From: a virus
IMG/VR virus record: IMGVR_UViG_3300045988_095964
Length of the DNA: 64,000 nucleotides
Direction: 5' to 3' (one strand)
Below the pieces are notes generated by a model that searched no databases, was not told where the DNA came from, and saw only the letters and a list, made by a program, of their open reading frames with translations. The translations under genes and the position numbers were made by a program. Positions 8,796 to 53,735 of this stretch are shown one piece after another (position 1 is the stretch's first letter; each line of letters starts with the position of its first letter).

Positions 8796-9097
8796 TGGAC
8801 AGTATTCTGATAACCCTATGCGCCGTACTGTTTAACGTGTCCGGCCTCGCAGAAACCGTAACGTTTCATATCGAGAGAAATGTTGTGGTAAACTGTTCGA
8901 AGTGCTTGACCTTTTGGACAGTGTTGGCGTATGGGGTTGTCAGTACCGACTTTTCCGTTCGAACGCTTGCCGTTGCCTTTGGGTGTAGTTACATGGCTTT
9001 GTGGTTAGAACTGGGTTTTTCATGTCTCAATTCACTTTACAACAGACTTTATGGGAAAATTTATTCCGGTGAAACCGAAAGCGGTAAAGAACATTAA
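8795..9097 (+). CDS. Membrane protein
   Basis: 100 aa with three hydrophobic segments and a TAATG overlap with the upstream gene. Confidence 0.5.
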   Translation: MDSILITLCAVLFNVSGLAETVTFHIERNVVVNCSKCLTFWTVLAYGVVSTDFSVRTLAVAFGCSYMALWLELGFSCLNSLYNRLYGKIYSGETESGKEH

Positions 9098-11232: not shown

Positions 11233-11303
11233 TGAGCTATGGTGTAATGGTAACACACAAGATTTTGGTTCTTGGATTATCGGTTCGAACCCGGTTAGCT
11301 CAA
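11233..11303 (+). tRNA. tRNA-Gln (anticodon UUG)
   Basis: Hand-folded cloverleaf. Acceptor tgagcta/tagctca with a U1-A72 pair, typical of tRNA-Gln. D stem gtgt/acac. Anticodon stem caaga/tcttg with loop ttTTGgt. T arm atcgg-ttcgaac-ccggt. No encoded CCA. Confidence 0.8.
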
Positions 11304-11308
11304 CTAAG

Positions 11309-11437
11309 AGGGTTCCTCCTAAGTGGTTGCAAAGATAGTAACATGGTGGAACATGTCGCCGCACAACTCCATCGACGGATAGCGAGTTTGGGAGAGTAGG
11401 TTAAAGTCCTACCGCCAGCTTAGGATGAACCCTTTTT
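11309..11437 (+). ncRNA. Candidate structured RNA directly 3' of tRNA-Gln
   Basis: agggttcctcctaag (11309-11323) pairs 14/15 with cttaggatgaaccct (11419-11433) and is followed by TTTTT. It encloses 95 nt containing a T-arm-like hairpin gtagg-ttaaagt-cctac. No ORF is present. Confidence 0.4.
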
Positions 11438-11465
11438 ACAGACAATAATCATAACTCATTATATC

Positions 11466-11882
11466 ATGCAACTGGACAAATCGTATGCGTCTATAACTCT
11501 TGCAGCTATGGCAATGCACAGAGGATTCGACGAGCATTGCTCCGTATTCATTTCGCCGAACCACATGCAAGAGGTTAGTCGTAAAGCCCTTATCGTAGAC
11601 GGTGCAGTTATGGACAATCAGTTACTTCCCATTCCGACACTGGAGCAGATACAACGGTGGCTTCGTGAAAAACACAAGATAAACGTTTACTGCGTTTGGC
11701 ATCTTGTCGATACCCCTCCGTTTAACGGAGTGTGGATTCCGTTTATGGGTGAAGACGCAATAACCTATCAGGGTTCTAAGTTAGACTCCATTCGATACGT
11801 GCAGGAAGAATCCGATTACTACGACGCTTTGGCTTTTGCGGTACACAAAGGGTTATTAAAACTCCAAGATTTTAAGGAATAA
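11466..11882 (+). CDS. hypothetical protein
   Basis: A 138-aa ATG ORF between two tRNAs. Confidence 0.55.
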   Translation: MQLDKSYASITLAAMAMHRGFDEHCSVFISPNHMQEVSRKALIVDGAVMDNQLLPIPTLEQIQRWLREKHKINVYCVWHLVDTPPFNGVWIPFMGEDAITYQGSKLDSIRYVQEESDYYDALAFAVHKGLLKLQDFKE

Positions 11883-11887
11883 AAGTT

Positions 11888-11973
11888 GCTCGGATGGTGA
11901 AACAGGTAGACACGCCGGACTTAAAATCCTGTGACCAGCAATGGTCGTGCGGGTTCGATTCCCGCTCCGAGTA
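11888..11973 (+). tRNA. tRNA-Leu (anticodon UAA), class II
   Basis: Acceptor gctcgga/tccgagt (G1-U72). D arm gtg-aaacaggtaga-cac. Anticodon loop ctTAAaa, with one C-U mismatch in the stem. Variable arm gacca-gcaa-tggtc. T arm gcggg-ttcgatt-cccgc. Confidence 0.75.
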
Positions 11974-12040
11974 CTAATTTTTACACACATGGACAAACAA
12001 GAACTTATCGCAAAAATTGGCTATCTTGCCATTTCTTGCT

Positions 12041-12117
12041 TATATTTGCGGTACTAATATGTAAAGAATTCGCTGTTTACTTTACATGTCCAAGAGAATA
12101 TGTAAAGGTTCTTTACA
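12041..12117 (+). promoter_or_regulatory. -7 box TAtaTTTG followed by two TGTAAAG/CTTTACA palindromes
   Basis: TAtaTTTG at 12041-12048. atgtaaag (12059-66) pairs with ctttacat (12080-87), and tgtaaag (12101-07) pairs with ctttaca (12111-17). Confidence 0.4.
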
Positions 12118-12169
12118 CGTTACCACACGCTCCCTAAGAACGCGGCGTGTTGGTTCTTTCCCATCTTAC

Positions 12170-12435
12170 AAACTTGGAGAGTAGCCGTACTGCCTTGCGT
12201 AGCGTCCGGTGAAGGTTCTCCGCCCCTATTGTTTATAAGCCCCACGCCTGCATGGGTACAAGCAGGAAGCGGAAGGTGGTTTCAGTGCGCAACGAGTTTG
12301 ACACCGACCGCGTTTTATAAGGGACCTGCCCGAAAGTAGAGTAAGGCGCAGGTGAATACCGGTGACAAGTCCGGCTACCAACTATGTTCATCGCAGGCTG
12401 GTGCAAGTGCAATATACTGCCACGGGGTCCCTTAA
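12170..12435 (+). ncRNA. Candidate structured RNA between tRNA-Leu and tRNA-Ser
   Basis: ORF-free and GC-rich. A long-range helix pairs taagggacc (12318-26) with ggtccctta (12426-34). Local hairpins include cctgc-N10-gcagg, ccgg-tgacaagt-ccgg and acctgc-N18-gcaggt. The region starts with ggagagt, the same 7 nt as the tRNA-Ser acceptor. Confidence 0.35.
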
Positions 12436-12439
12436 TTTT

Positions 12440-12524
12440 GGAGAGTTGGCTGAGTGGTCGAAAGCACCTGCCTACTAATCAGGCGTACCGTAAGGTACCG
12501 GGGGTTCGAATCCCTCACTCTCCG
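12440..12524 (+). tRNA. Class II tRNA, Ser-like; anticodon read by eye as ACU
   Basis: The fold parallels E. coli tRNA-Ser: ggagagt-tg-gct-gagtggtcgaa-agc-a-cctgc-CTACTAA-tcagg. Variable arm gtacc-gtaa-ggtac, T arm ggggg-ttcgaat-ccctc, then actctcc-g. Confidence 0.7.
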
Positions 12525-12553
12525 CTATAACCCTTTCTTAGAAATTTCCCCTT

Positions 12554-13082: not shown

Positions 13083-13751
13083 ATGGCTCTTGACTGTAAC
13101 AAAACCGACGAACAACTGGGCATAGAAATCGGCAAACTTCTTTCCGAAGCTGGTGTCGAAACCCCTTGCATCAAATCCGAGTTTTCCGACAAGGAGAAAA
13201 TTGAAATGATCCAAGCTGACTTTGCGCATATCATGCTGACACTCGGTTTGGCTCTCTCGGATGATTCCCTCCATGAAACACCGCGACGTGTCGCCAAGAT
13301 GTTCGTGCGGGAAATCTTTTGGGGACTCGACTACAAGAACTTCCCCAAGTGCACCACTATTGTGAACAAGATGGCCTATGATTCTATGGTAGTGGAGCGA
13401 CACATTAAGGTTACTTCCAACTGCGAGCATCACTTCGTTCCTATCCTCGGCGAAGCTACGGTTGCATATATTCCGAACGGTCGAATTTTGGGTCTCTCCA
13501 AGATGAACCGTGTAGTGGAATTCTTCTCGCGCCGTCCGCAAGTGCAGGAGCGTCTTGCCGAGCAAATCTATCTGGCACTGTCTTATATCCTTGGTACGCC
13601 GAGTGTGGCCGTCATCATTAAGGCGGAGCATTTGTGCGTTCGCACCCGCGGTGTAGAGGACTACAACAGTGATACTATCACTTCCAAGCTGGGAGGTGCT
13701 TTCGACGAAAGTTCCACCCGTGCAGAACTTATGCAACTTATCAAACAATAA
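13083..13751 (+). CDS. folE: GTP cyclohydrolase I
   Basis: Motifs SNCEHHFVPILGEATVAYIP, GLSKMNRVVEFFSRRPQVQERL and AEHLCVRTRGV match the FolE active-site signatures. Confidence 0.9.
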   Translation: MALDCNKTDEQLGIEIGKLLSEAGVETPCIKSEFSDKEKIEMIQADFAHIMLTLGLALSDDSLHETPRRVAKMFVREIFWGLDYKNFPKCTTIVNKMAYDSMVVERHIKVTSNCEHHFVPILGEATVAYIPNGRILGLSKMNRVVEFFSRRPQVQERLAEQIYLALSYILGTPSVAVIIKAEHLCVRTRGVEDYNSDTITSKLGGAFDESSTRAELMQLIKQ

Positions 13752-13755
13752 AATT

Positions 13756-14382
13756 ATGGGTTGGATTGGTATTCGGGGAATCCGAGTTTCCACCGACATT
13801 TTTACGACATATTTTTCGTGTGACTACGAGAAGTGCAAAGGCGCGTGTTGCTGGGCGAAAAATAAGGTTCCTACATTCGGAGGTGCTCTGACGCATGAGG
13901 AATGCGCAGAGATTCTCCGGAATCAAACCCTTATTCAGTCCTACGTGTCGCCCGAAATGCGCAAGAAGTTTGCACGGTCGCCCATAGTCGCTTCACGGGA
14001 TTACTCCACATCTGACGGGCGTTCCTATGCAATGGAAAACTACAAGGGTGGTTCGTGTCTGCTTTCCCGGCGAGACAAAAACTGTTGTGCCTTGGAACTG
14101 ATGCACGCCGAGGGAAAAGGGTTGTCGTTCTCCATTCCGGTTTACTGCTCACTGTACCCCTTAGTCTGGCATAATGCTGAGTTGCGACTGGATTTATCTC
14201 ACTTGTGGGATGACCAATGCTCTACGGCTTTCGACAAGGGGCGCCGTGAAAAAATGCCAGTATGGAAATTCGTCGAACCATCTATCAGACGACTTCTCGG
14301 CGATGAATTTTATACCGAGTTGGAAGAATACGCTAAACACTATAAGGAATGTTTGGACAAGACCTTTCCGCAATCGACATAG
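13756..14382 (+). CDS. Cys-rich protein (CxxCKGACC), DUF3109-like from memory
   Basis: FSCDYEKCKGACCWAKNKVPTFGGALTHEECAEIL plus later Cys residues. The family assignment is unverified. Confidence 0.45.
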   Translation: MGWIGIRGIRVSTDIFTTYFSCDYEKCKGACCWAKNKVPTFGGALTHEECAEILRNQTLIQSYVSPEMRKKFARSPIVASRDYSTSDGRSYAMENYKGGSCLLSRRDKNCCALELMHAEGKGLSFSIPVYCSLYPLVWHNAELRLDLSHLWDDQCSTAFDKGRREKMPVWKFVEPSIRRLLGDEFYTELEEYAKHYKECLDKTFPQST

Positions 14383-14639
14383 GGCTTATTTGTACCGTGA
14401 TCGTTGCAAGTATTTTGGCTCTTACGGAATGTTTCATTATTTTTTCGTATCTTCGCCACAAGAGATTCGAACGTGCACGGGAAGTAGAACACTACACTGA
14501 CTACACACATGGGAACTTGGTGATGCGTGTGTACAAAGCGGAGTTTGAATTTCAGGCAAAACGAGACATCCCTCTCTCCAAAATATTGGATGGGGGAGTA
14601 CTCTCTCAATACTATATGTGGATTTTATTCGAAAAGTAA
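14349..14639 (+). CDS. hypothetical membrane protein
   Basis: 96 aa with one TM segment (IGLICTVIVASILALTECFIIF). It overlaps the upstream gene by 34 nt, so the start is uncertain. Confidence 0.35.
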   Translation: MFGQDLSAIDIGLICTVIVASILALTECFIIFSYLRHKRFERAREVEHYTDYTHGNLVMRVYKAEFEFQAKRDIPLSKILDGGVLSQYYMWILFEK

Positions 14640-15106
14640 TGGCAACTGTAAATCAAACAACTCTGGACAAGTTACTGAACTTGGCCGCTTCGTGGCAGGT
14701 GTTCAACATTAAGGTGCACCAGTACCACTACAACATCAGCTCCTCCAATTTCAGGTCGCTCCACGCTCTTTTCAAAGAGTTGTACGAGGATGCCGACGAA
14801 CGGTACGACGAGGTTGCAGAACGTCTGCGCCAAATCGGTCAGAAAGTCGTGCTTTCGTGCGCTGACCTCGCTCGGCGGAGTGCTGTTTCCGACGATAACA
14901 GTGCGGCTACTCCCGAAGCTATGTTGCAGGGAGTGGTCGATTCGTTCGCCGCTATTACGACGCTTCAAACCGAGATTTGGTTCGAGAGCGACGAACAGAA
15001 GGACATGGTTACGAATGACCTCATGGTCCAGCTCAACAAGTATATCGACCTCAAGAACTGGATGGTTACTGCCCAAATGGGTAAAGAGGTCGTGCAAACC
15101 AAATAA
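14639..15106 (+). CDS. dps: Dps-family ferritin-like DNA-protection protein
   Basis: HQYHYNISSSNFRSLHALFKELYEDADERYDEVAERLRQIG carries the Dps ferroxidase H..H..D..E pattern. ATG at 14639. Confidence 0.8.
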   Translation: MATVNQTTLDKLLNLAASWQVFNIKVHQYHYNISSSNFRSLHALFKELYEDADERYDEVAERLRQIGQKVVLSCADLARRSAVSDDNSAATPEAMLQGVVDSFAAITTLQTEIWFESDEQKDMVTNDLMVQLNKYIDLKNWMVTAQMGKEVVQTK

Positions 15107-15117
15107 ACCCTACAACT

Positions 15118-15327
15118 ATGGACGCTAACGCTAAGAAAGTGTTGATTTGGATTGGTGTCGCTATCGCCGTCCTTATCGTCGGAACTGTGGTGTGGAATAT
15201 CTTGCCGAAGGGATTCCGCATCTACACAACTATCGGTTGGGTGCTGGGAGCCGCTGTCGGTTCGTTTGCCACCTACAAGGGCTACAAGTGGTGGCTCGAT
15301 AACGTTAAAAAGGAGGTAAAGAAATGA
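15118..15327 (+). CDS. Small two-TM membrane protein
   Basis: 69 aa, with hydrophobic segments VLIWIGVAIAVLIVGTVVW and IGWVLGAAVGSFA. Confidence 0.5.
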   Translation: MDANAKKVLIWIGVAIAVLIVGTVVWNILPKGFRIYTTIGWVLGAAVGSFATYKGYKWWLDNVKKEVKK

Positions 15328-15626
15328 CGACGTTCGATTTTTCCTATGCAATCGAACTTCTCCGGGAGGGAAGGTGCATTGCACGTACCGGTTGGGCCGG
15401 TCGCGGTCTTTTCGTATTCAAACAGGTTCCGTCGAGTATCGGAAGCGAGATCATCCCGAAAATGCAGTCGGTTCCGCAAAAGGCCAAGCAAGTCATCCTG
15501 CGCACGGTAGGTCATATCGACTATGAGAACCAGTGCGTTATCTACGATACGAAAACCGGCATCGCTAACAGTTGGGTCCCCTCGATCAGCGATATGTTCG
15601 CCGCAGACTGGTACGAGGTCGAATGA
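15324..15626 (+). CDS. DUF2829-family protein (Tad2-like)
   Basis: FSYAIELLREGRCIARTGWAGRGLFVF ... SWVPSISDMFAADWYEV follows the DUF2829 pattern (F..A...L..G..v.R.GW ... W.ps..D..a.DW). Confidence 0.7.
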   Translation: MTTFDFSYAIELLREGRCIARTGWAGRGLFVFKQVPSSIGSEIIPKMQSVPQKAKQVILRTVGHIDYENQCVIYDTKTGIANSWVPSISDMFAADWYEVE

Positions 15627-16096
15627 AAAAGGTTCTCCAAATAATCTGCGCCGTACTGCTGTACATTTGGCAATTTCCGCAGAATCTTGTGGGGTTGTTC
15701 ATGCTGTGGTACTATCGGGGGGAACGTCGTGTTCATAAAGAGAACGGCACCGCCTTTTACGTCGTACCCTCTATGAAAGGCGGGTTCTCTATGGGACGGT
15801 ATATCTTCATCTCGAAGAACTCAATACTTCGGGAACCCGTATACGACCATGAATACGGGCATACTCGGCAGTCTCGGAGACTGGGTTGGTTATATCTGCC
15901 TATCGTTGGATTGTGCAGTGGGATTCACTGCTTATGCTACAATGGCAAGGGCGGTTACTATAACTACTGGACTGAACGGTGGGCAAATAAACTCGGTGGT
16001 ATCGAGGGGTACTCCGGGCAGTATCATTACCACAAAGAGGGTCTTATTCACACTGTGTACGCTGACTTAGCCGCCAAGGTTTCTTGGTTCAAATAG
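15623..16096 (+). CDS. Membrane protein with HExxH motif (putative zincin-like)
   Basis: An N-terminal TM segment plus DHEYGHTRQS. ATGA overlap with the upstream gene. Confidence 0.5.
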   Translation: MKKVLQIICAVLLYIWQFPQNLVGLFMLWYYRGERRVHKENGTAFYVVPSMKGGFSMGRYIFISKNSILREPVYDHEYGHTRQSRRLGWLYLPIVGLCSGIHCLCYNGKGGYYNYWTERWANKLGGIEGYSGQYHYHKEGLIHTVYADLAAKVSWFK

Positions 16097-16131
16097 TTTC
16101 TTCATTTTGTTTCGCTTCATTGTAAGCGTGA

Positions 16132-16160
16132 GGGGAGTGCTTCGGTGCTCCCCTTATTTG
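16132..16160 (+). terminator. UUCG-tetraloop hairpin terminator
   Basis: ggggagtgc-ttcg-gtgctcccc followed by ttatttg. Confidence 0.65.
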
Positions 16161-16181: not shown

Positions 16182-16213
16182 TTTGGAATTGTCAAAAATT
16201 TTTATTATATTTA
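16182..16213 (+). promoter_or_regulatory. Class-1 phage promoter, copy P3 (drives the paralog array)
   Basis: tttggaattgtcaaaaatttttattatattta, in the same 23-nt register. The -7 box ends in TTTA. Confidence 0.6.
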
Positions 16214-16216: not shown

Positions 16217-16534
16217 ATGCAGGAAACTATTATGTCGATAGGTAATATCGACGGTAAAATCAGACTATACAGGGTTCTGCTATGGTGTAGGGATTGCCGA
16301 CATATTAAAACCGCACTTACCCCAGCTCTGGATACGTACCAACTGGGTTACGGTAACGCTGTGGCTCAAATATGTGAGAACGTTGCTTATCCTTGCCATC
16401 TGCATGTAAGGCATGATTCCGAAAAACCCGAAGACGAACCCTACATTTACATAAGTCGTTACAGCGGTAACGGGAAACTTTGTTCGGATTATCTCGATTA
16501 TCTCGACTGGGAGGATTTGTTTTATGATACATAG
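16217..16534 (+). CDS. Array paralog A1
   Basis: C-terminus ..YLDWEDLFYDT*. The start may be the ATG at 16232, given promoter proximity. Confidence 0.6.
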   Translation: MQETIMSIGNIDGKIRLYRVLLWCRDCRHIKTALTPALDTYQLGYGNAVAQICENVAYPCHLHVRHDSEKPEDEPYIYISRYSGNGKLCSDYLDYLDWEDLFYDT

Positions 16535-16742
16535 AACCATTTTTATAGGGGAACGTGTTTGGAGAGTGCTCGAATTACTTCGCCAAGCTGGCTATGAGAT
16601 AGGTCACACCGTACATGTCTATCCGGAGAAAGAGTACGTACTAACTATTGATATTTCAACTAAACGTTCAATAATAGAAAACATCGGTACTCTTAGAGCA
16701 CCTTATTTCGAGTGGGAGGAATTTGAGGATTTATTTCTATAA
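16524..16742 (+). CDS. Array paralog A2 (type i)
   Basis: 72 aa, with LLRQAGYEIG and C-terminus ..WEEFEDLFL*. Confidence 0.7.
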   Translation: MIHRTIFIGERVWRVLELLRQAGYEIGHTVHVYPEKEYVLTIDISTKRSIIENIGTLRAPYFEWEEFEDLFL

Positions 16743-16744
16743 CG

Positions 16745-17314
16745 ATGGCTAAAGTTACTTGTGAATCTTTCGCGGAGACTTGCTTCTTCTGTCGATACCT
16801 ATATGCGCAACAACGTTGGGACCCCCATGAAGAAATGATCCATATATTTAATGGCGATGGGGTTGTTAATGTATATTCTCTAAACAGTCTTTTGAGAGGT
16901 CTCACAAGTGTAGGTAGTTGGTCTGCCGTTATTGTGGATGTCACTTATGCAGAGACAGGAGATATTAGGATCACCCGTAATGACGGTGTTCGGAAGACCA
17001 CTCTACGGCAGTATTTCGAAGACGCTATCTTGGTTAGTGTAGGTTGTGACGCCGACGCACAAACTGTCCTATCTTCGAATTATTGTTCTGACAGATTTCC
17101 TACCGGCTCTCCAATAGTACACGTCCTTACTGATGATGAATTGGACGCGGTACGTCTCGTAGAGGTTCCGGAAAAGTTCTTTTTGTCTAAGGTACCCTAC
17201 CTTGCGTGTATTATTCTCAGATACGGTAGGATAAGCGTCATTCATGCTGACCGCAGTCTTATCCATACCCTTTCCATGTTAAGCATTGACGACTTTGAAG
17301 ATTTATTTGGATGA
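16745..17314 (+). CDS. Array paralog A3 (long form)
   Basis: 189 aa, C-terminus ..SIDDFEDLFG*. Confidence 0.7.
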   Translation: MAKVTCESFAETCFFCRYLYAQQRWDPHEEMIHIFNGDGVVNVYSLNSLLRGLTSVGSWSAVIVDVTYAETGDIRITRNDGVRKTTLRQYFEDAILVSVGCDADAQTVLSSNYCSDRFPTGSPIVHVLTDDELDAVRLVEVPEKFFLSKVPYLACIILRYGRISVIHADRSLIHTLSMLSIDDFEDLFG

Positions 17315-17586
17315 TGAATATTACAGTACGTGTAGAATCATTAGGGGAACTCCGAACATTGTGTATTTGGTATCAGAGCCGAATACACCTTATGGAGTTT
17401 GAGATTAAGTTTCCCCGACTTAATCAGGAAGTTTCTGCTACTGACTTACTTCGTTATGATCTTGTGACAAGTGAGATACCCGGTTATGTTCGTATACAGG
17501 ATAAACCATACCTTGAGGTAGGTGCTTTCCCTGTTGATTTTCCGGATGCACTCACTTTTGCAGACTGGTTAGATTTATTTTCTTAA
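17311..17586 (+). CDS. Array paralog A4 (type ii)
   Basis: 91 aa, with VRVESLGELRTLCIWY and C-terminus ..FADWLDLFS*. ATGA overlap. Confidence 0.7.
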   Translation: MMNITVRVESLGELRTLCIWYQSRIHLMEFEIKFPRLNQEVSATDLLRYDLVTSEIPGYVRIQDKPYLEVGAFPVDFPDALTFADWLDLFS

Positions 17587-17588
17587 CT

Positions 17589-18098
17589 ATGGGTAATATT
17601 GTAAAGGTCGAATCCTCCGACCAACTTTCTAAGACGCTTCTTTCGTGGTATGAATCCAATAGAGCACCTCTTAGTTCGAAAGTAATACAGACATACACTG
17701 GTGCAGATTCGTCGTACATGTACCAGTCTTACATGGAGATTTATGTTAATAGGTACACATTTCCCTGCTTTATTTTCTTAGGGAGTATGTCCATCGTTAT
17801 TCACGAGGATATTCCTAAAGATTACGATACCAGTTCTGCCTATACATATAACGACTACATGAGAGAAATGAAAATACGGGATTCTTTTGTTCATGTTCGC
17901 ACCCCATTCGGAGCTGATACGTTTGAGCAAAGTCTCCGAGAGGCTGGTTATACTTTAGTGGCCGATGGTGTCGACACTACGGGAATTTCAGGTTGCTATA
18001 TTATTCATCCTGCTAAGAAGTGGTATATCCGCATAGAGCTTAAATCGCTTCCAAGAGATTTTTTGTCCGTGATTGATTTTACCGATTTATTTTTATGA
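17589..18098 (+). CDS. Array paralog A5 (type ii + type i fusion)
   Basis: 169 aa. The N-half has VKVESSDQLSKTLLSWY, the C-half has FEQSLREAGYTLV, and the C-terminus is ..VIDFTDLFL*. Confidence 0.7.
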   Translation: MGNIVKVESSDQLSKTLLSWYESNRAPLSSKVIQTYTGADSSYMYQSYMEIYVNRYTFPCFIFLGSMSIVIHEDIPKDYDTSSAYTYNDYMREMKIRDSFVHVRTPFGADTFEQSLREAGYTLVADGVDTTGISGCYIIHPAKKWYIRIELKSLPRDFLSVIDFTDLFL

Positions 18099-18370
18099 AC
18101 TACGAAAAAACCTACTCGCTCAGGAGTGTTGACATAGAATATATGCCGCATAATTATATCTATGTTCAGGTTTGTGGGGAGCAAGTGCCCGAACTTATTT
18201 CGTTATTGCGGGAGAACTCTTATGAAACTAATGTGGACTTGGAGTCTTATTCGTGTCTACTTGACTTTTGGGTGTGCATGGACGTCCAGTACAAAACGTG
18301 TTCAGTGAAACTTGCGGATTTTGAAGCTCCTCGTATGAGTTTTTCGGAATTCGCCGATTTATTTTTGTGA
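18095..18370 (+). CDS. Array paralog A6
   Basis: 91 aa, with LLRENSYETN and C-terminus ..SFSEFADLFL*. ATGA overlap. Confidence 0.7.
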   Translation: MNYEKTYSLRSVDIEYMPHNYIYVQVCGEQVPELISLLRENSYETNVDLESYSCLLDFWVCMDVQYKTCSVKLADFEAPRMSFSEFADLFL

Positions 18371-18588
18371 TGGCGAACTTTGTTTTTGTTCGGTTAGAAG
18401 CGTCGAAAATGCCACACGTTTCCGAACAACTTATTCAGTATGGCTACACATGCACAAAAACCATTAAAGAGGCTGGAGGACAAGTAGTGCTTTTAATTGA
18501 TAACGATAAGAAGACCTATTTTTGTCCCTCGGTTACAGTGACTAACTACGAGATAACTTGGGAGGACTTTGTTGATCTATTTCTATGA
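18367..18588 (+). CDS. Array paralog A7 (type i)
   Basis: About 72 aa, probably starting at ATG 18370. It has LIQYGYTCT and C-terminus ..TWEDFVDLFL*. Confidence 0.7.
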   Translation: MMANFVFVRLEASKMPHVSEQLIQYGYTCTKTIKEAGGQVVLLIDNDKKTYFCPSVTVTNYEITWEDFVDLFL

Positions 18589-18800
18589 TAAGAGTATTTG
18601 TACCTAACCGAATGAACGACGCATTTAAGATGCTTCTCAGACAAAACGGCTACACTATTGGTAACTCTCAGATAAGTACCAGCACGTTTCACCTTATATA
18701 TGAGATCATCCCCGAAAAATTGCAGGCATCATGTTTTCTGACTATGGATAATAGTCTTAGGGGTATGTCCGTAGATGACTTCATCGACTTATTTTTGTGA
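18585..18800 (+). CDS. Array paralog A8 (type i)
   Basis: 71 aa, with LLRQNGYTIG and C-terminus ..SVDDFIDLFL*. ATGA overlap. Confidence 0.7.
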   Translation: MIRVFVPNRMNDAFKMLLRQNGYTIGNSQISTSTFHLIYEIIPEKLQASCFLTMDNSLRGMSVDDFIDLFL

Positions 18801-19018
18801 TTATGGAAAATGTTGTTTTCGTATACGTGGATAAACCACGAATCGACGCTTTTATGGAGCTACTGACTGAGGATGGCTATACTGACCGTTCCCCTAATGC
18901 GACCGATAAGAAGCGATTGGTTTTTCGAATCTATCCAAAGGAAAAGTTATTTAAGCGAATCATGTACTCCTACGGAACTTGTCTATCGGTGGAAGATTTT
19001 ATTGATTTGTTCTTATGA
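18797..19018 (+). CDS. Array paralog A9 (type i)
   Basis: About 71 aa, probably starting at ATG 18803. It has LLTEDGYTDR and C-terminus ..SVEDFIDLFL*. Confidence 0.7.
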   Translation: MIMENVVFVYVDKPRIDAFMELLTEDGYTDRSPNATDKKRLVFRIYPKEKLFKRIMYSYGTCLSVEDFIDLFL

Positions 19019-19311
19019 TTATCTACGACATACATGGCTACACGCAACTACGAAGGTTGCTGGCAATGATACTGACTGCCCGACCTATCGAACTAAAGCA
19101 GTTGGCGGCCTACGACTACTTTTGGCATAACGGTACTAAGTGGACACTGTGGGATATGGAGAAAAGTAAAGGAGCACTATTTCCTCCGGTTACGCTGGTA
19201 AAATGGGGTGACGAAGGTATCTTTGTATTTCCGAATACCCTGTTGGATAGCGTATCTACGGACGAATCCGAGATACTGACTTATCTTGATTTTCTCGATC
19301 TATTTGAGTAG
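19015..19311 (+). CDS. Array paralog A10
   Basis: 98 aa, C-terminus ..LTYLDFLDLFE*. ATGA overlap. Confidence 0.7.
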   Translation: MIIYDIHGYTQLRRLLAMILTARPIELKQLAAYDYFWHNGTKWTLWDMEKSKGALFPPVTLVKWGDEGIFVFPNTLLDSVSTDESEILTYLDFLDLFE

Positions 19312-19314
19312 ATT

Positions 19315-19608
19315 ATGATAGTTGCGGTAGAAAATATAGAGCAAATAGAAGCTATCGTTTCATGGTGGGTAAACAAAAATGGTACAAGCATACGCGCAAT
19401 ACACTTTGCATTTACAAATGTATATGAGCGTCATTCGTACACAGAAGCTATGCACCTATTTACATGTTATATAGCTTCGGAAAGTTTTCCGACACCATTT
19501 TATCTTAGCTTAGGTCATTTTGTATGTACGGTCTTTTTTAAGCCTGTGAAGGAACACACCGTAAAAGAGTCTCTTACTTATGACGATTTTTTAGATTTAT
19601 TCGATTAA
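19315..19608 (+). CDS. Array paralog A11 (type ii)
   Basis: 97 aa, with VAVENIEQIEAIVSWW and C-terminus ..LTYDDFLDLFD*. Confidence 0.7.
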   Translation: MIVAVENIEQIEAIVSWWVNKNGTSIRAIHFAFTNVYERHSYTEAMHLFTCYIASESFPTPFYLSLGHFVCTVFFKPVKEHTVKESLTYDDFLDLFD

Positions 19609-19621
19609 AGCGTAACTTGAG

Positions 19622-19960
19622 ATGACCAAGGGTAACAGCTTATGTTTCACTCTATTGTCACACACAGAGGCGCGTGTGATAGTGGACTGGTTAATGAAAG
19701 TACAAGGCTATCCTTTTTACTTTATAAAAGATAACCTTATGAAGAAATACCGTCATTCTGCCGACATACCGGTGACTTTAGCCACAATATGCGTACATGT
19801 ATATAACAATAGAGTACACGTGTATGGAGCCGCCGCTCTTGATCGGTTAGTAGCTGAGGAATCCTGTCTATCTTTTGCCGACTTCGAGGAACTGTTTTCT
19901 GACGTTACTGAGAAGCTACCGGGAGTTGCTTTTTTAGGCTATTATGCCATTTCCGGGTAG
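19622..19960 (+). CDS. Array paralog A12 (type ii, motif internal)
   Basis: 112 aa. The motif ..LSFADFEELFS is followed by a 19-aa extension. Confidence 0.65.
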   Translation: MTKGNSLCFTLLSHTEARVIVDWLMKVQGYPFYFIKDNLMKKYRHSADIPVTLATICVHVYNNRVHVYGAAALDRLVAEESCLSFADFEELFSDVTEKLPGVAFLGYYAISG

Positions 19961-20405
19961 TTGACCTATGTCAACCACTTTTTCGCATTTTTAGAGGACC
20001 AATTTTTACCTCCTAAAAACAGCTAATTTCAGAAACCCACGAAAAGTAGCATAATTATCTGCGTAAAAATTAATTACGCAGTTATACACCAAAGCGGTTA
20101 ACCGTAGCAACCAGTAGAAAAAGGGGTAAAAAGGCGGTTGTGTTTCAGTATAGACGTAATTGCAGTAACAAGATGCCGGAATAACTATTCTAATTTTACC
20201 AAGATCGCGGCTAATAATTTACATTGTCTCTATTAATATAATAACAGTATATACAAGTAATAATGTATGCGTGTAAGTAAAAGGGTTTCTAAACCCGTGT
20301 TAACCTGCACATCGGGTAACGGCCACAGAGGGCCGCAGGAAAGATAACCCAGCTAACAGGTAGCAAATGCGGCTGGGAACGTTACCTTTCTAATTAAGAT
20401 TACTT
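19961..20405 (+). other. 445-bp ORF-free spacer splitting the array
   Basis: No ORF of 60 aa or more on either strand. It contains hairpins gttgac-ctat-gtcaac plus a T-run (19960-19995) and ctgcgtaa-N7-ttacgcag (20059-20081), and an AT-rich core at 20160-20270. Confidence 0.7.
20315..20386 (+). promoter_or_regulatory. Candidate three-way-junction RNA leader upstream of A13
   Basis: An outer helix ggtaacg (20315-21) / cgttacc (20380-86) encloses hairpins ggcc-acagag-ggcc and cccagc-N18-gctggg. It ends 19 nt before the ATG at 20406. Confidence 0.3.
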
Positions 20406-20624
20406 ATGGATAATCTTATATACGTGTGTGTAGAATCTACCCAGCGAAAAGACTTTATTAAATTATTATGCAGCAATGGTTACGCAGATGTGTCGGAGGA
20501 TCGTTCTCGTTCAGATAATATGCTCTTAGTAGATAATAAGCACAAACAGTTTATACGGCTACGCTATTTTACTGGTTCCTGTTCAGATATGTCGGCAGAA
20601 GACTTTATTGATTTATTTCTATAA
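20406..20624 (+). CDS. Array paralog A13 (type i)
   Basis: 72 aa, with LLCSNGYADV and C-terminus ..SAEDFIDLFL*. Confidence 0.7.
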   Translation: MDNLIYVCVESTQRKDFIKLLCSNGYADVSEDRSRSDNMLLVDNKHKQFIRLRYFTGSCSDMSAEDFIDLFL

Positions 20625-20626
20625 TT

Positions 20627-20851
20627 ATGGGTGGTAATATATACGTGCAAACAGATGGGTATAGTAAGTCTGAATTTATGCAGCTATTATCTGAAAATGG
20701 CTACATTGAGATAGCTACCAAGAGTACTACTGCTGATGAATACAGAAATGTATTTATTATTTCTACGGTTCGGAAACGTTATACACGTGTAGTTGCATCC
20801 ACGGATACAGATATTTTATCCGTGGAGGACTTTATTGATTTGTTCTTATGA
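20627..20851 (+). CDS. Array paralog A14 (type i)
   Basis: 74 aa, with LLSENGYIEI and C-terminus ..SVEDFIDLFL*. Confidence 0.7.
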   Translation: MGGNIYVQTDGYSKSEFMQLLSENGYIEIATKSTTADEYRNVFIISTVRKRYTRVVASTDTDILSVEDFIDLFL

Positions 20852-21117
20852 ATATAATAGTAAATAACTACGAGGAATTAACTGATGTAGTTGAGTGGGT
20901 ATACTTTACTAATAAGTGGAATATAGGACAAACACGTATAATTATAAATAATGTCGGGGATATTAACTATATACAGTTAATTTCCGGAAACGTGCATTTA
21001 AGATTTCCTGTATTGGTATGTATAGAACCCTCACGTGTATGGCTATACCGAGTAGAGGGTGTTCCCGAATTTCTCCCGGATTTATCTTACGACGATTGGG
21101 AAGACTTATTTAACTAA
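20848..21117 (+). CDS. Array paralog A15 (type ii)
   Basis: 89 aa, with IVNNYEELTDVVEWVY and C-terminus ..SYDDWEDLFN*. ATGA overlap. Confidence 0.7.
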   Translation: MNIIVNNYEELTDVVEWVYFTNKWNIGQTRIIINNVGDINYIQLISGNVHLRFPVLVCIEPSRVWLYRVEGVPEFLPDLSYDDWEDLFN

Positions 21118-21132
21118 CTAACTAAAATAACT

Positions 21133-21375
21133 ATGGAACTTAACATTATTATCCCGCGTACTAAGTGGGCGAGCGCAAAGAAAACTTTTCGCGCGGCTAA
21201 TTATCAAATTCTACCCGATCTGAATGTTAACGCAGAGGGTAAGCAATTAGTGTTGGACATCGACACTATCTGTAAGAGTGTGTTCGCTATCTATGTTCCT
21301 GCTGAGATGGAGTGCTCTGACGGTGACATGGAGTTTGCTGAGTTTAAGATGCAGTACTTACAACCAGCTAACTAA
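21133..21375 (+). CDS. Array member A16 (diverged type i)
   Basis: 80 aa, with FRAANYQIL. The tail is decayed: ..DMEFAEFKMQYLQPAN*. Confidence 0.55.
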   Translation: MELNIIIPRTKWASAKKTFRAANYQILPDLNVNAEGKQLVLDIDTICKSVFAIYVPAEMECSDGDMEFAEFKMQYLQPAN

Positions 21376-21412
21376 CTTCAAAATTGCGGCGGAGAAATTA
21401 AATTAGAATACT

Positions 21413-21640
21413 ATGATAACTTTCGAATGTGACGCATACGAAATAGAAGAACGTATCGAGAAACTTAATGAATTGGGGTGGCTCGTAACTATTTCCCATC
21501 CGGACGGAGACTATGTTTGTTGTTATGTTGACTACGATAAGAAATACATGGATATAGAATACTACGAGGACGAAGACGAATGTCCTACTGGTAGTTCTAC
21601 CATATATGATTTCTTGGACAGCGTTGGATTAAGTTATTAG
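21413..21640 (+). CDS. Array member A17 (diverged type i)
   Basis: 75 aa, with LNELGWLVT. The tail is decayed: ..TIYDFLDSVGLSY*. Confidence 0.55.
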   Translation: MITFECDAYEIEERIEKLNELGWLVTISHPDGDYVCCYVDYDKKYMDIEYYEDEDECPTGSSTIYDFLDSVGLSY

Positions 21641-21663
21641 CGCAGGTAAGATTTCTGCTCACT

Positions 21664-21714
21664 CTCCGGAGCACAAACGGGACCCCACCCCTTAAATGGG
21701 GTTGGTGCCCGGAG
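21664..21714 (+). terminator. Long stem-loop closing the array (no T-run)
   Basis: ctccgg-a-gcac pairs with gtgc-ccggag, with an inner cacccc-ttaaat-ggggt(t)g hairpin. It begins 24 nt after the A17 stop. Confidence 0.35.
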
Positions 21715-21733
21715 GGGATGCGGGTAGTCCACA

Positions 21734-21832
21734 TAGGTCACAGAGTAGTTTCGTAGATCGAGACATGTAGTTTCAGTAACCGCGTAGGTCACAACGTAGA
21801 TTTGCAAGATCGAGCCATGTAAGTCGAGTAAC
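21734..21832 (+). repeat. Two imperfect ~48-bp direct repeats (period 51)
   Basis: taggtcacagagtagtttcgtagatcgagacatgtagtttcagtaac aligns with taggtcacaacgtagatttgcaagatcgagccatgtaagtcgagtaac. Confidence 0.7.
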
Positions 21833-21859
21833 TGTGCAGAGATGTCGTGCGTGCATCGG

Positions 21860-22059
21860 TGCGGTGTGCGGAGAACGGTGCGCATGCGGTGCTGATTGTG
21901 CGGTGATAGTTGTGTGGAGACGGTATTGCGGTGTGTGATCGTGTGCGTGGGTGTGAATACGGTGCGTAACTGGTGAATCTGTGGAGGTCGTGTGCGGTGG
22001 TTGAAAAATGGTTGAAAGTGCGGGTTACCCCGGTAAATCGCCCTCTTACTGGTGCGGTG
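21860..22059 (+). repeat. Iteron-like array: six exact TGCGGTG heptamers in one orientation, in G+T-rich C-poor DNA
   Basis: TGCGGTG occurs at 21860, 21885, 21899, 21927, 21993 and 22053, plus near-variants (GGTGCGC, GGTGCGT, GTGCGTG, GTGCGGG). The region is non-coding. Confidence 0.75.
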
Positions 22060-32276: not shown

Positions 32277-32816
32277 ATGGCAACTATCACACGGGTATTT
32301 GAGTTTGACGCCGCACACCGGGTAATGAATGAGCGCGTAAAGTGTTTCAACCTACACGGGCATCGTTTTCGGTTGGAGGTAACCTTTGACATTTCCCAAG
32401 AGTATTGGGGTCTTGGTTACCCTATCGACTTTAAGGAACTCAAACGAATCTTCGGCGGATTCATCGACCAATTTTTAGACCACGCCTGTATTCTTAATCC
32501 TCAGGATGACGAGATCATCAACATGTGCGACAAAAATAACTGGCGCATGTGGGTAATGGGTTTCTGCCTGCGGGATATTGACAAGAATCCCTCTGCTGAA
32601 AATCTGGCTGACGAATTATTCGTTTCATTCAAAGAACTGGCGACATTATGTCCCGAAAAGTTTACCATTAACTCGGTTCGGCTGTATGAGACGCCGAATT
32701 GTTGGGTTGATGTCAATTCGTCCGAGACCGAATTAACCGAAGCATTCCGACACTCTCTTACCAAGTGGAGGGAATCTATGGGTAACTTCGAATATGACGC
32801 GAGAAAATGCCAGTAA
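32277..32816 (+). CDS. queD: 6-carboxy-tetrahydropterin synthase (QueD / PTPS family)
   Basis: FEFDAAHRV...KCFNLHGHRFRLEV provides the His triad plus the catalytic Cys. Confidence 0.8.
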   Translation: MATITRVFEFDAAHRVMNERVKCFNLHGHRFRLEVTFDISQEYWGLGYPIDFKELKRIFGGFIDQFLDHACILNPQDDEIINMCDKNNWRMWVMGFCLRDIDKNPSAENLADELFVSFKELATLCPEKFTINSVRLYETPNCWVDVNSSETELTEAFRHSLTKWRESMGNFEYDARKCQ

Positions 32817-34456
32817 GAAAATCCATAAAGGAGGAAGGCTTCGTATTTGAAACCAAAGGAAAGAGTGCCGAAAGTATCGACACCTCAAGCGTTGAGGGTA
32901 AGACGGTCTCTTTCGACGCGCATTTCATTACGAACCGTATCATGGAGTTCGGTAAGATTCTTACCGGCATACCTCTGTATGAATATCAGGAAGCCATTGC
33001 GTATCGGATCATTTACTCGGTAATCACTTTCGAGGGTAGCGTTCTAACCGTCCTGCTGTCCCGTCAGTCGGGTAAGTCCGAGACAATGGCTTTTGTCATT
33101 GATACCCTAACCGTCCTGCTTCCGGCGCTTGCTAAAGTACTGCCGGAACTGGAACAGTTCTCCACTGGTTTCCGTGTTGGACTGTTTGCGCCGCAATCGG
33201 ATCAGGTTGTAACGACTTATTCGCGTGCTATGACAAGACTTAATTCGGCCAATGCCGAGATGATTCTCTCTGACCCGGATATTTCGGTATCTATGGAAAG
33301 TAACGTGCGCTTGTCACTGAGTAACGGATCGTTCTTGGCCGGACAAGTCGCCAGTAAGCAATCCAAGATCGAATCCAAGACGTATGACCTTGTAATATGT
33401 GAGGAGGCACAGGATATTGACGACTTTATCGTTCAGAAGTCTATCGAGCCTATGCTTTCGGCTACCGGTGGTACACTGCTTAAAGTAGGAACTACCGGTA
33501 TGACCAAGAACCACTTTTGGTATGAGATTCAGGCGAACCGTAACCATGACCGCCGATTGAAAGACCCACGGTTACGGAATCACTTCGAGTACGCATATAA
33601 GGAGATCATCGCCGCCCGTCGTGAACAGTATGAAAAAGACGGTAAGAAATTCCACCTCAACTATGAAGCGGACGTGCTTCGTAAAAAGGAACGTTGGGGA
33701 GAAGATTCCCAAGCGTTCAAACTTGCGTATGCGTTACAGTGGGATTTGGAGAGCGGTATGCTTATTACCGATAAGGAGTTCAACAATCTGCTGAACCGGA
33801 AACTCGGTTATCAGGACCCCGATATTCGTGATTTTATCGTTGCCGGCCTCGATATTGGTAAGTCTCCTGCGGAGACGGTTCTTACGATTGGCCGTGTATG
33901 GTACGGGGATGACCCGTTCGAAAAACCCTATAAACAGATACTCGCATGGGTATGTTTAGGAGGTCTCGACTACGAAGCCCAACACCATGAAATTCTCAAC
34001 TATATTGTAGAATACAACATTTCTACTATATTTGCAGACTATACGGGTGTTGGTAAAGCTGTCGTTGACAGATTGATTTATGCCTGCGGCGAACATGTCA
34101 ATATCGAACCGTATACGTTTACGGCGCAGAGTAAATCTGACATGTGGTTTAATTTTATCTCGGACATTCAAACCAAGCGTATTATTGTGCCTGCGAACAA
34201 ACAAGTGCGAGGTACGATGGAGTTCCAAAAGTTCGAGGAGCAAATGAAGAACTGTCAGAAGTATTTCAACGGCCCGTACATGGTTTGTGAAAAATCGGAC
34301 GGCTACTTTGATGACATGGTAGACAGTTGTGCGTTGATGTGTTTGGCGGCTAACTCCGACCGGCAGGTTGACAATGAAATGGAAGTTACCGATAATCCGC
34401 TGTACGATGGAATTACTGCGACTATCGGCGCAATAAGGAGAAACTCTTACACTTAG
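32807..34456 (+). CDS. terL: Terminase large subunit
   Basis: 549 aa. Walker A-like LLSRQSGKSE, Walker B DLVICEEAQD, and a C-terminal nuclease-sized half. It precedes the portal gene. Confidence 0.85.
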   Translation: MPVRKSIKEEGFVFETKGKSAESIDTSSVEGKTVSFDAHFITNRIMEFGKILTGIPLYEYQEAIAYRIIYSVITFEGSVLTVLLSRQSGKSETMAFVIDTLTVLLPALAKVLPELEQFSTGFRVGLFAPQSDQVVTTYSRAMTRLNSANAEMILSDPDISVSMESNVRLSLSNGSFLAGQVASKQSKIESKTYDLVICEEAQDIDDFIVQKSIEPMLSATGGTLLKVGTTGMTKNHFWYEIQANRNHDRRLKDPRLRNHFEYAYKEIIAARREQYEKDGKKFHLNYEADVLRKKERWGEDSQAFKLAYALQWDLESGMLITDKEFNNLLNRKLGYQDPDIRDFIVAGLDIGKSPAETVLTIGRVWYGDDPFEKPYKQILAWVCLGGLDYEAQHHEILNYIVEYNISTIFADYTGVGKAVVDRLIYACGEHVNIEPYTFTAQSKSDMWFNFISDIQTKRIIVPANKQVRGTMEFQKFEEQMKNCQKYFNGPYMVCEKSDGYFDDMVDSCALMCLAANSDRQVDNEMEVTDNPLYDGITATIGAIRRNSYT

Positions 34457-53369: not shown

Positions 53370-53735
53370 ATGCGTGGATTAACATGTAGATTCAAAATGG
53401 ACAACGGTAAACTCGCTTTATCGTCAGGTTCAACGAAAGCTCAGGATGACATTTGGTTTTACTGCGTTTTCGATAAGCTACGTGTGTATACGTCTGACTA
53501 CGGATTTAATTTCCGGGCATTGGAGCAACGGCCTACGTCGTTCTTCCTTATCAACCGGGCGCTTATAACCTCCACACTTAAAAACGGAATCGAGAAATAC
53601 ACGAATGACTTAAAGGTCAACAGTGTGGATGTAGGATATGACCCTGCCGACGACAACAAGCAGATTCGTTTGCTTATCGACTATTCCTCTGTGGAGGAAA
53701 ACAAAACCGAGGTAAAGGGTGTAACATTTGTATAA
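53370..53735 (+). CDS. Baseplate wedge gpW/gp25-like
   Basis: 121 aa, upstream of the J-like gene. The call is position-based. Confidence 0.45.
   Translation: MRGLTCRFKMDNGKLALSSGSTKAQDDIWFYCVFDKLRVYTSDYGFNFRALEQRPTSFFLINRALITSTLKNGIEKYTNDLKVNSVDVGYDPADDNKQIRLLIDYSSVEENKTEVKGVTFV

Follow-up and report, generated by a model that had tools for sequence, protein, structure and literature searches.

The leading regions of conjugative plasmids carry anti-defence genes (PMC11541004). Another kind of gene cluster, the recombinase-associated orphan-immunity arrays of Bacteroidales (rAID-1; Ross et al., 10.1101/471110), is defined by a 5′ XerD-like recombinase at least 44% identical to BF9343_RS08045 and by at least two co-directional genes with a GC content of 41% or less; these arrays contain immunity-family genes and repetitive, integron-like intergenic sequences. 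The candidate family 'Flandersviridae' (Benler et al. 2021) comprises phages of approximately 85-90 kb with a myovirus structural block, Bacteroides or Parabacteroides hosts and a locus of about 20 kb filled with open reading frames (ORFs) of unknown function; phages of this kind are reported to be among the most common in the human gut (PMC8008677). Here we describe an array of 17 small genes at positions 16217-21640 (+ strand) of the IMG/VR virus record IMGVR_UViG_3300045988_095964. The stretch analyzed, hereafter the window, has a length of 64,000 nucleotides. Its architecture, including a block of unknown ORFs of about 20 kb, points to a Flandersviridae-like Bacteroides myophage of roughly 90 kb (PMC8008677), and the array makes up roughly a quarter of that block.

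The array products constitute a lineage-restricted, unannotated family of small acidic alpha/beta proteins encoded in a variable accessory region of the phage. Almost all of them end in the same C-terminal element, on which purifying selection is much stronger than on the remaining protein. One portion of the array recurs, nearly unchanged, in mobile defence islands of Bacteroidales chromosomes, which suggests a possible toolkit for conflicts between mobile elements and host immunity. Our tentative explanation, possible though short of probable, is a diversifying library for counter-defence or for conflicts between mobile elements that is built on one conserved C-terminal module.

Array and C-terminal tail

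All 17 ORFs that a first-pass annotation had listed for this region are present on the + strand at the coordinates given there. They are arranged in two adjacent operons, m01-m12 (operon 1) and m13-m17 (operon 2), because a terminator-like hairpin and a noncoding leader of 445 bp follow directly after the stop codon of m12. The ORFs are thus not strictly consecutive, as the noncoding DNA at 19961-20405 splits the array. The features are as follows (all + strand; the body classes A and B are described below).

16128..16157, +: terminator-like hairpin closing the upstream operon, 13-bp stem with UUCG loop (terminator scan)
16183..16211, +: promoter-like site of operon 1, TTGGAA-17-TATATT; TATATTTA is one mismatch away from the Bacteroidota -7 box TAnnTTTG (a consensus match only, not evidence of function)
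16217..16534, +: m01, 105 aa, body B-like or unclassified, tail LDYLDWEDLF followed by YDT
16524..16742, +: m02, 72 aa, class A, tail FEWEEFEDLFL
16745..17314, +: m03, 189 aa, long and unclassified, tail LSIDDFEDLFG
17311..17586, +: m04, 91 aa, class B, tail LTFADWLDLFS
17589..18098, +: m05, 169 aa, composite (N-terminus B-like, C-terminal half A-like), tail LSVIDFTDLFL
18095..18370, +: m06, 91 aa, class A with N-terminal extension, tail MSFSEFADLFL
18367..18588, +: m07, 73 aa, class A, tail ITWEDFVDLFL
18585..18800, +: m08, 71 aa, class A, tail MSVDDFIDLFL
18797..19018, +: m09, 73 aa, class A, tail LSVEDFIDLFL
19015..19311, +: m10, 98 aa, class B-like, tail LTYLDFLDLFE
19315..19608, +: m11, 97 aa, class B, tail LTYDDFLDLFD
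19622..19960, +: m12, 112 aa, class B-like, tail LSFADFEELF internal, with 20 further residues behind it
19960..19975, +: terminator-like hairpin GTTGAC-CTAT-GTCAAC with subsequent T-run, where operon 1 ends and the shared cassette has its left edge
19961..20405, +: 445-bp noncoding leader of operon 2, with homology to the noncoding DNA near Xis in Bacteroidales integrative elements
19961..21773, +: operon 2 cassette, extent of DNA homology to chromosomal elements (blastn)
20406..20624, +: m13, 72 aa, class A, tail MSAEDFIDLFL, 86% identical to element protein L007_A72
20627..20851, +: m14, 74 aa, class A, tail LSVEDFIDLFL, structure modelled
20848..21117, +: m15, 89 aa, class B, tail LSYDDWEDLFN, 79% identical to element protein L007_B89, structure modelled
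21133..21375, +: m16, 80 aa, A-like body, divergent ending MEFAEFKMQYLQPAN
21413..21640, +: m17, 75 aa, net charge -16, ending STIYDFLDSVGLSY, final gene within the shared cassette
21655..21725, +: stem-loop, long and stable (-37.1 kcal/mol, z = -3.3), with which the cassette ends on its 3′ side

The terminator scan and the folding result bear out the UUCG hairpin and the long stem-loop by which the array had been said to be bracketed. The assumption that most junctions are overlaps was only partly right: of the 16 junctions, seven are ATGA/GTGA overlaps of 4 nt, one is an overlap of 11 nt, and four are gaps of 2-3 nt. Apart from the single leader, the intergenic distances within the array range from -11 to +37 nt. 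The AT-richness that had been noticed by eye is real, as the GC content (1-kb windows) amounts to 0.35-0.42 across the array compared to approximately 0.47 elsewhere in the window; the individual member genes have 34-44%. All members are acidic with isoelectric points (pI) between 4.1 and 6.0.

Fifteen of the 17 products, whose C-termini read exactly as written in the annotation, end in [LMI][ST]x[DE][DE][FW]x[DE]LF, usually followed by one residue. Thus, a shared ending exists, but alignments of both classes revealed a conserved length of approximately 10-11 residues rather than the five that had been given. A strict form of the end pattern was matched by 14 ORFs of the window, all of them located within the array, while neither the 285 other ORFs (at least 40 aa, both strands of the window) nor the 374 ORFs of the related phage BS162P1 contained it. 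From the window, related loci and database matches, we compiled a set of 205 distinct family members. The pattern used for collecting them restricted the Leu position to L/I/M/V and the Phe position to F/Y, which has to be considered for the finding that Leu and Phe are each kept in 204 of the 205 sequences. The tail positions not constrained in this way were nearly invariant as well (L/M/I 98%, S/T 93%, D/E 99.5%), and the aromatic position is occupied by F (150), W (53) or Y (2). Phe is the penultimate residue in 195 of the 205 members, among them 13 of the window, which corresponds to the number previously reported. The last residue depends on the class: it is Leu in class A and polar in class B.

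Selection on the tail was determined with ten orthologous pairs from the window and the divergent related phage L012, for which the ten tail codons were compared with the bodies. The ratio of nonsynonymous to synonymous changes (dN/dS) was 0.048 for the tail, with a proportion of synonymous differences (pS) of 0.60, and 0.319 for the bodies. Amino acid differences affected 10 of 100 tail positions and 248 of 927 body positions (Fisher p 1.4e-4). Since the tail dN/dS lies far below that of the bodies and synonymous change is abundant, conservation acts on the peptide. This agrees with the synonymous variation of the motif codons already noted in the first-pass annotation (Asp gat/gac, Leu tta/ttg/cta, Phe ttt/ttc), to which ctg can be added for Leu, and a comparison of tail and body dN/dS, which had been suggested there, thereby gave a clear result. 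Judging from these codon comparisons, the tail is under strong purifying selection, while the bodies diverge to the point of being unrecognisable.

Other causes of the conservation were considered and rejected. A constraint on the DNA, i.e., an overlapping start or translation-initiation region, does not fit the tail pS, nor the fact that conservation is equal where no gene closely follows. The codons gat-tta-ttt-ttg may form a TAnnTTTG box, and such boxes are enriched in the window (81 vs. 44 ± 6). A perfect box, however, exists at only three junctions. The tail also resembles the eukaryotic FxDxF and FxxLF motifs known from the AP-2 ear and the androgen receptor. We treated this likeness as a coincidence, since it concerns a five-residue pattern in cytoplasmic phage proteins.

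Protein classes and predicted structure

Class A (approximately 72 aa) is made up of m02, m06-m09, m13 and m14, to which m16 and m17 can be added as divergent relatives. Class B (approximately 90 aa) includes m04, m10-m12 and m15. By body-only blastp, m05 looks like a composite, whose N-terminus is 52% identical to that of m04 over 25 aa and whose residues 100-159 match m08, m09 and m14. A comparison of the tail-less class A and class B bodies by hhalign gave a probability of 0.6%. Hence, the tail is the only demonstrable link between the classes, and the assertion that all 17 genes are paralogous is unproven for class A versus class B. The description of the array as a diversified set of small proteins was supported; the two body classes have no detectable mutual similarity.

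The tail of m17 had been regarded as decayed. This protein (75 aa, pI 4.1, net charge -16) is conserved between phage and islands, and its own ending IYDFLDSVGLSY is kept in the phage and chromosomal homologs alike. Hence, m17 represents a conserved, very acidic family of its own and not a decayed copy. Its charge density resembles that of DNA-mimic anti-restriction proteins.

Structures were predicted by AlphaFold2 (AF2) from small family alignments. Class A (m14, model m662a013bb654) was modelled as beta-alpha-beta-beta-beta-alpha with a predicted local distance difference test (pLDDT) score of 77.5, class B (m15, model m7432c13131aa) as a larger alpha/beta domain (pLDDT 87.5, predicted template modelling score 0.81). 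In both classes, the models place [LMI][ST]x in a short strand and [DE][DE][FW]x[DE]LF in a C-terminal helix, with a pLDDT of approximately 85-89. The predicted helix is amphipathic and has two turns; the aromatic residue, Leu and Phe lie at positions i, i+3 and i+4 on one face, and the acidic residues at its start. The tail is thus predicted to be part of the fold rather than a free linear peptide. The first-pass annotation had proposed that all members dock through the tail onto a single partner, but nothing shows that the tail is a free docking peptide.

The invariant hydrophobic face and the conserved end of the helix are typical of dimer interfaces of small proteins. The helix may therefore serve as an oligomerisation handle, by which the members form homo- or hetero-oligomers, so that the array would encode combinatorial assemblies instead of independent monomers, each docking on a host hub. 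Tightly coupled operons, whose co-expression favours co-assembly, would suit this idea. Moreover, apart from the host, the family itself is the only partner guaranteed in both the phage and the integrative elements described below, since no other protein is common to the window and the element. However, the helix is already placed confidently in the AF2 monomers, and elements with a single tail-bearing gene exist (L022, L056), for which reason hetero-oligomers are not obligatory. Altogether, we consider such assemblies unlikely.

Another partner, put forward in the first-pass annotation, was the beta sliding clamp of the host, to which the tail would tether the members as a linear peptide. Clamp-binding phage proteins are known, and clamp motifs bind as extended peptides; the consensus is reportedly QL[SD]LF, a motif ascribed to Dalrymple et al. 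2001. The x[DE]LF near the C-terminus resembles the last three residues of this motif, and Phe is penultimate in 95% of the members. Yet the Gln that defines the motif occurs in none of the 205 sequences, which have F, W or Y instead, while the host Pol IV encoded beside an element ends with QLRFDFGEE and hence has a canonical motif of the Q type (QLRFDF). In addition, the tail is predicted to be helical, and the strand in front of it is modelled as joining the fold. Why a phage should have 15 clamp binders is not obvious, and phages of the Flandersviridae type encode a PolA-type replicase (PMC8008677). We therefore give little credence to the clamp.

Searches for relatives supported the earlier statement that the genes belong to no described family. 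No member reached the threshold in Pfam, PHROGs or NCBIfam, and profile searches against PDB sequences gave no matches for the family. Foldseek searches with both AF2 models against the PDB, and with class B against BFVD, yielded nothing significant (best E 0.05-0.9, TM-score ≤0.5). Large protein searches turned up relatives from the same lineage only, none of them annotated. When 1.84 billion representatives were searched exhaustively with HMMER, approximately 20 more diverged proteins of 68-80 aa were added, whose bodies differ greatly but which still end with [ST]xx[DE]FxDLFL. NHL-repeat proteins, which also appeared in this search, were discarded as repeat-inflated matches to profile positions 7-34 only. 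No further copies were detected in two scans of the GTDB species-representative genomes, in IMG/VR by a protein-pattern search, in INPHARED by megablast of the array or tblastn of m15, or in the plasmids of PLSDB.

The only relative of a class A body outside the lineage is a repeat of the metagenomic protein P0138 (1078 aa), in which a Mrr_cat nuclease domain is followed by seven repeats of approximately 110 aa (hhalign probability 81%, E 1.2e-5, 64 columns). The start of the class A tail aligns with the start of the second helix of this repeat. Compared with class A proteins, the seven repeats are longer and do not end in DLF, and a nuclease is fused to them. In an index of 5.8 billion proteins, the repeat was without other homologs, and it was not recognised as a nuclease domain. 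By eye, the repeats had looked like a degenerate Mrr_cat or PD-(D/E)xK domain, but hhalign (probability 0.5% against Mrr_cat), Pfam and the homolog search did not confirm this. For class A itself, a nuclease fold was likewise not found by Pfam, by hhalign of the class A alignment (A6) with the Mrr_cat domain of P0138 (0.1%), or by Foldseek.

Operon 2 and the Bacteroidales islands

Members of the family (P0080, P0084 and P0113) are also encoded on scaffolds that we assigned to Bacteroidota because of neighbouring SusC/D, FimA and Pol IV genes. There they lie inside integrative elements of approximately 10 kb, which are inserted at differing chromosomal sites. Their layout begins with a tyrosine integrase of 415 aa (Arm-DNA-bind_5, Phage_int_SAM_5 and Phage_integrase domains) and an excisionase of the HTH_17 type. 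A noncoding region comes next, then between one and four genes of the tail family, usually a gene similar to m17, and the stem-loop. PDDEXK_4, a protein of 182-202 aa and, in some elements, FtsK_gamma follow, and the layout is completed by a slot with variable cargo, DUF6642 and another integrase. The cargo is related to defence and consists of PDC-M36A/B (E 2e-237), a BamHI restriction-modification system, AAA_21+DUF4276 or Mrr_cat; the PDDEXK_4 protein itself partially matches PADLOC PDC-S26. In the literature searched, no description of this island family (L004, L007-L011, L019-L068) was found.

Alignment of the window with an element by blastn revealed identities of 76% at 19969-20334, 70-83% at 20583-21120 and 79-93% at 21373-21773. 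The shared DNA covers the leader (76% identical to L004 8799-9163), m13-m15, m17 and the stem-loop. m16 is missing from the chromosomal elements examined and from some phages. The other element proteins, including PDDEXK_4, have no homolog in the window, and the phage copy is without a recombinase; the elements examined carry neither virion genes nor the gene of a 157-aa HExxH protein that precedes the array in the phage. All sightings of the 12-gene operon 1 have so far come from phages. The DNA identity of 70-93% indicates a recent transfer of operon 2 between phage and island. Operon 2 is a self-contained cassette, consisting of a conserved leader, genes and stem-loop, which is exchanged with the islands at the DNA level.

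Within the leader, one segment is conserved even more strongly.

20096..20210, +: ultra-conserved noncoding core, approximately 115 nt, essentially invariant between phages and elements (alignment A9, columns 136-250)

In the elements (e.g., L004 at approximately 8930-9045, L007 and L018-L071), the core is always located just downstream of the integrase and excisionase genes. Its invariance contrasts with the flanking genes, whose identity is only 70-83%. The exact 46-mer 20104-20149 was found on 53 gut metagenome contigs and one IMG/VR contig, and it is present even in elements whose integrase is only 36% identical. At about 30 of the roughly 50 core-bearing loci, PDDEXK_4 or a membrane protein of 437 aa follows directly after the core, without small genes. 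The core is therefore a feature of the island backbone, and the cassette an optional cargo in the first slot after it. As a guess, the core might be a promoter/operator, an oriT-like site (origin of transfer) or a small RNA. Neither the leader nor the 3′ stem-loop matched an Rfam family as a structured RNA, and no covariation was seen (alignments A9 and A11) in these sequences, which barely vary. As the cassette adjoins the conserved noncoding core in mobile islands, we also record that m14 scored 18.8 bits (cut-off 45, E 0.0015) with the oriT-binding conjugal-transfer family TcpK of NCBIfam, probably noise.

The position of the cassette in the elements would also be compatible with an origin on the side of defence. 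The small proteins could be regulators, antitoxin-like inhibitors or sensors of the PDDEXK_4 operon, which the phage would have captured and amplified as mimics in order to turn that defence off. The cassette lies directly upstream of the conserved PDDEXK_4 gene with the same conserved leader, the high identity of operon 2 speaks for a recent transfer, and the sole outside relative of class A is fused to a Mrr_cat nuclease. The nuclease operon, though, does not need the small genes, given the many core loci without the cassette, and the lack of a PDDEXK_4 homolog in the window, the restriction of operon 1 to phages so far, and the P0138 repeat, which is without homologs and not recognised as a nuclease domain, do not support this origin either. 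We rate it as quite unlikely.

It was also conceivable that the array encodes immunity proteins against interbacterial or abortive-infection toxins, as do rAID-1 and SUKH arrays. The genes are small, co-directional and low in GC, and, like rAID-1 (10.1101/471110), the chromosomal copies belong to Bacteroidales and are preceded by a tyrosine recombinase. Furthermore, m17 matched the C-terminal half of SMI1_KNR4/SUKH-1, but with 15.4 bits it remained below the cut-off of 25.4 (E 0.028). The SUKH lead was abandoned, as this single weak match concerned only one of 35 members scanned. Other data do not fit immunity genes: repetitive intergenic sequences are missing and the genes abut or overlap, the recombinase is of the Arm-DNA-bind_5/Phage_int_SAM_5 type with an excisionase and not XerD-like, and Foldseek did not find a fold of immunity proteins. 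An immunity array is thus very unlikely.

Accessory region, proposed role and related systems

All genes of the window are encoded on the + strand. The genes next to the array and the structural genes are listed below.

13083-13751, +: GTP cyclohydrolase I
13669-14382, +: Rv0495c/DUF3109
14618-15106, +: ferritin-like protein
15324..15626, +: Tad2-like protein (Thoeris anti-defence 2), two genes upstream of the array; PF11195, 59.1 bits, cut-off 25, E 6.3e-16
15623..16096, +: protein of 157 aa with hydrophobic segments and an HEYGH (HExxH) motif, between the Tad2-like gene and the array
32807-34456, +: large terminase (TerL)
34461-36047, +: portal
37149-38147, +: major head protein
44515-46215, +: sheath
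53728-55257, +: baseplate

Relatives of the window are found on contigs of 89-92 kb from human gut metagenomes. In every array-bearing phage examined, the upstream genes are syntenic (GTP cyclohydrolase I, Rv0495c-like, ferritin, Tad2-like, 157-aa HExxH, array). The Tad2-like gene has the same position in the related phages L012, L013, L072 and L073, and the HExxH protein is conserved in L012, L072 and L073. The closest cultured relative is Bacteroides phage BS162P1 (88.9 kb; host B. salyersiae; TerL 72% identical). It possesses homologs of Tad2 and ferritin, but not a single member of the array family.

The array content changes rapidly. Phages whose shared members are 95-100% identical differ in the presence or absence of other members and carry new ones. 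L012 is devoid of m06-m09, m11, m16 and m17, L073 has a largely different set of members, and MT835482 contains a mini-array of four genes with drifting tails (DYLDLF, DFIELY and the broken DWLDVRP). The m12 gene of the window is a divergent allele: its identity to m12 of other phages is approximately 60%, although the members beside it reach 93-100% in the same phages. This is an allelic replacement inside the array.

Some further observations concern other parts of the phages. The TerL of BS162P1 (L014 9334-12057) and that of MT835482 (L016 11123-13837) each align to the window TerL in two pieces, and the TerL ORF of BS162P1 has 2724 nt compared to 1650 nt in the window. These alignments suggest an insertion, an intein or another mobile insert, in both terminase genes; two I-HmuI-like endonucleases are annotated in BS162P1. 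Between the shared cassette and the next operon of the window, two copies of a direct repeat of approximately 52 nt exist at 21729-21839, followed at 21859-22059 by a GT-rich stretch with four copies of GTGCGGTG, which occurs five times in the whole window (1.35 expected). This arrangement (21729-22059) looks iteron-like, and the GC skew peaks there. Three tRNA genes, Gln-TTG, Leu-TAA and Ser-ACT, the last with an unusual anticodon, are located at 11233-12525.

The protein of 157 aa raises the question of a protease. As a degron or as a tag for a protease or adaptor, likewise a proposal of the first-pass annotation, the tail might be read by this putative zincin-motif membrane protein, which always lies between the Tad2-like gene and the array in the phages and gave no tblastn match in the array-less BS162P1. 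The C-terminal position of the tail and its penultimate Phe are also kept. But the chromosomal elements have tail proteins without the HExxH gene, the last residue differs between the classes, and the tail is predicted to be folded. Moreover, the HExxH protein matches neither a peptidase family nor any other entry in Pfam, NCBIfam or the PDB. We regard a degron as highly improbable.

Similar considerations apply to the tail as a signal for packaging into the virion and ejection, which was a further proposal of the first-pass annotation. The internal proteins IPI, IPII and IPIII of phage T4 are encoded by a polymorphic locus, IPI being an anti-restriction factor, and share a capsid-targeting sequence. 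The analogy to these diversifying proteins and the location of the array in a phage were the points in its favour. The proposal is hard to reconcile with the elements, which have no virion genes and nevertheless encode proteins 79-86% identical to array members, and with BS162P1, which lacks the family in spite of its related TerL. The T4 signal, moreover, is N-terminal and cleaved. The array belongs to an accessory block of its own, and the genes for packaging and head follow approximately 11 kb downstream. Packaging is therefore scarcely credible.

The neighbouring Tad2-like gene, the fast turnover, the sharing of operon 2 with defence islands and the small acidic products led us to favour, still tentatively, the library for counter-defence or inter-element conflict. 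Many known defence inhibitors and DNA mimics are small and acidic. The members would be expressed by the phage or island upon entering or taking over the cell and would act as stoichiometric binders or inhibitors, neutralising defence or toxin proteins of the host or of a rival element. Their target specificity would reside in the variable body and surface loops, while the invariant strand and helix would be a common module, either as the piece that completes the small fold or as an interface shared for self-association or for one common host factor. In a bolder version, which we find doubtful, this module would be a universal handle, by which a library of otherwise unrelated proteins plugs into one hub, be it a single host factor or the other members. 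A modular counter-defence architecture of this sort would be without a described precedent; its promoter-to-terminator cassette would travel between a lytic-type gut phage and chromosomal defence islands, guided by the noncoding core.

Several points weigh against the library. In Pfam, PHROGs and NCBIfam, none of the members matches a known family, whether of anti-defence, of immunity or of any other kind, and the function is deduced by association, i.e., from one adjacent Tad2-like gene, small size, acidity and turnover. Counter-defence genes on a defence island would be plausible for a mobile element. The data are also compatible with a defence-side or regulatory role. The confidence of the class A model is moderate (pLDDT 77.5). 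Finally, the spacing of one residue after Phe (195/205) and the acidic residues at the surface suggest that the tail does more than maintain the fold.

The family, of which over 200 distinct sequences were collected, can be searched for by a simple signature and accounts for a considerable part of an unassigned region in a very common group of gut phages. What makes it unusual is one invariant C-terminal module on otherwise unrelatable bodies, together with a cassette common to a phage and to chromosomal defence islands; by recent DNA exchange, the phage is directly linked to widespread integrative defence islands of Bacteroidales. The conserved tail provides a single handle, be it for an antibody, a truncation or a peptide pull-down, by which all members can be studied together. 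Should the members inhibit defence or toxin systems, they would be a ready panel for finding and probing immune systems of Bacteroides, and a factor when phages are chosen for microbiome editing. The ultra-conserved noncoding core is a separate puzzle, which can now be tested.

Regarding the known systems, the tail shares with the clamp motif (QL[SD]LF or QLxLxL) the C-terminal location and the residues [DE]-L-F, but lacks Gln (0/205), is predicted to be helical instead of extended and has with [LMI][ST]x[DE][DE] an upstream portion without counterpart. In common with the T4 internal proteins, the array encodes diversifying small phage proteins with a short conserved terminal sequence and varying bodies; its element, however, is C-terminal, predicted to be folded and also present in non-viral elements. 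More features are shared with rAID-1, namely the host order, low-GC co-directional arrays of small genes (region GC 0.35-0.42, members 34-44%), acquisition and turnover of genes, and a tyrosine recombinase adjoining the chromosomal copies. In contrast to rAID-1, the array is without repetitive intergenic sequences and without immunity-family matches, it is associated in the islands with an excisionase and a recombinase of different architecture, it also exists in a phage of the lytic type, and its members share a C-terminal motif. Thus, rAID-1 is an analogue of the array rather than its home.

Anti-defence islands of phages and other mobile elements, anti-CRISPR loci among them, are similar in other respects. 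They differ from the array in that the latter consists of one or two families with an invariant C-terminal strand and helix and not of unrelated genes; no array member matches a known inhibitor. Like them, the array is composed of co-directional, small, fast-evolving and mostly unannotated genes in an accessory region, varies in content between close relatives and is common to different kinds of mobile elements. By the operational description of such an island, it is a small accessory cluster beside a Tad2-like gene, variable and missing from BS162P1. As in the leading regions of plasmids (PMC11541004), the cassette in the islands comprises the first genes after a conserved noncoding element of the backbone.

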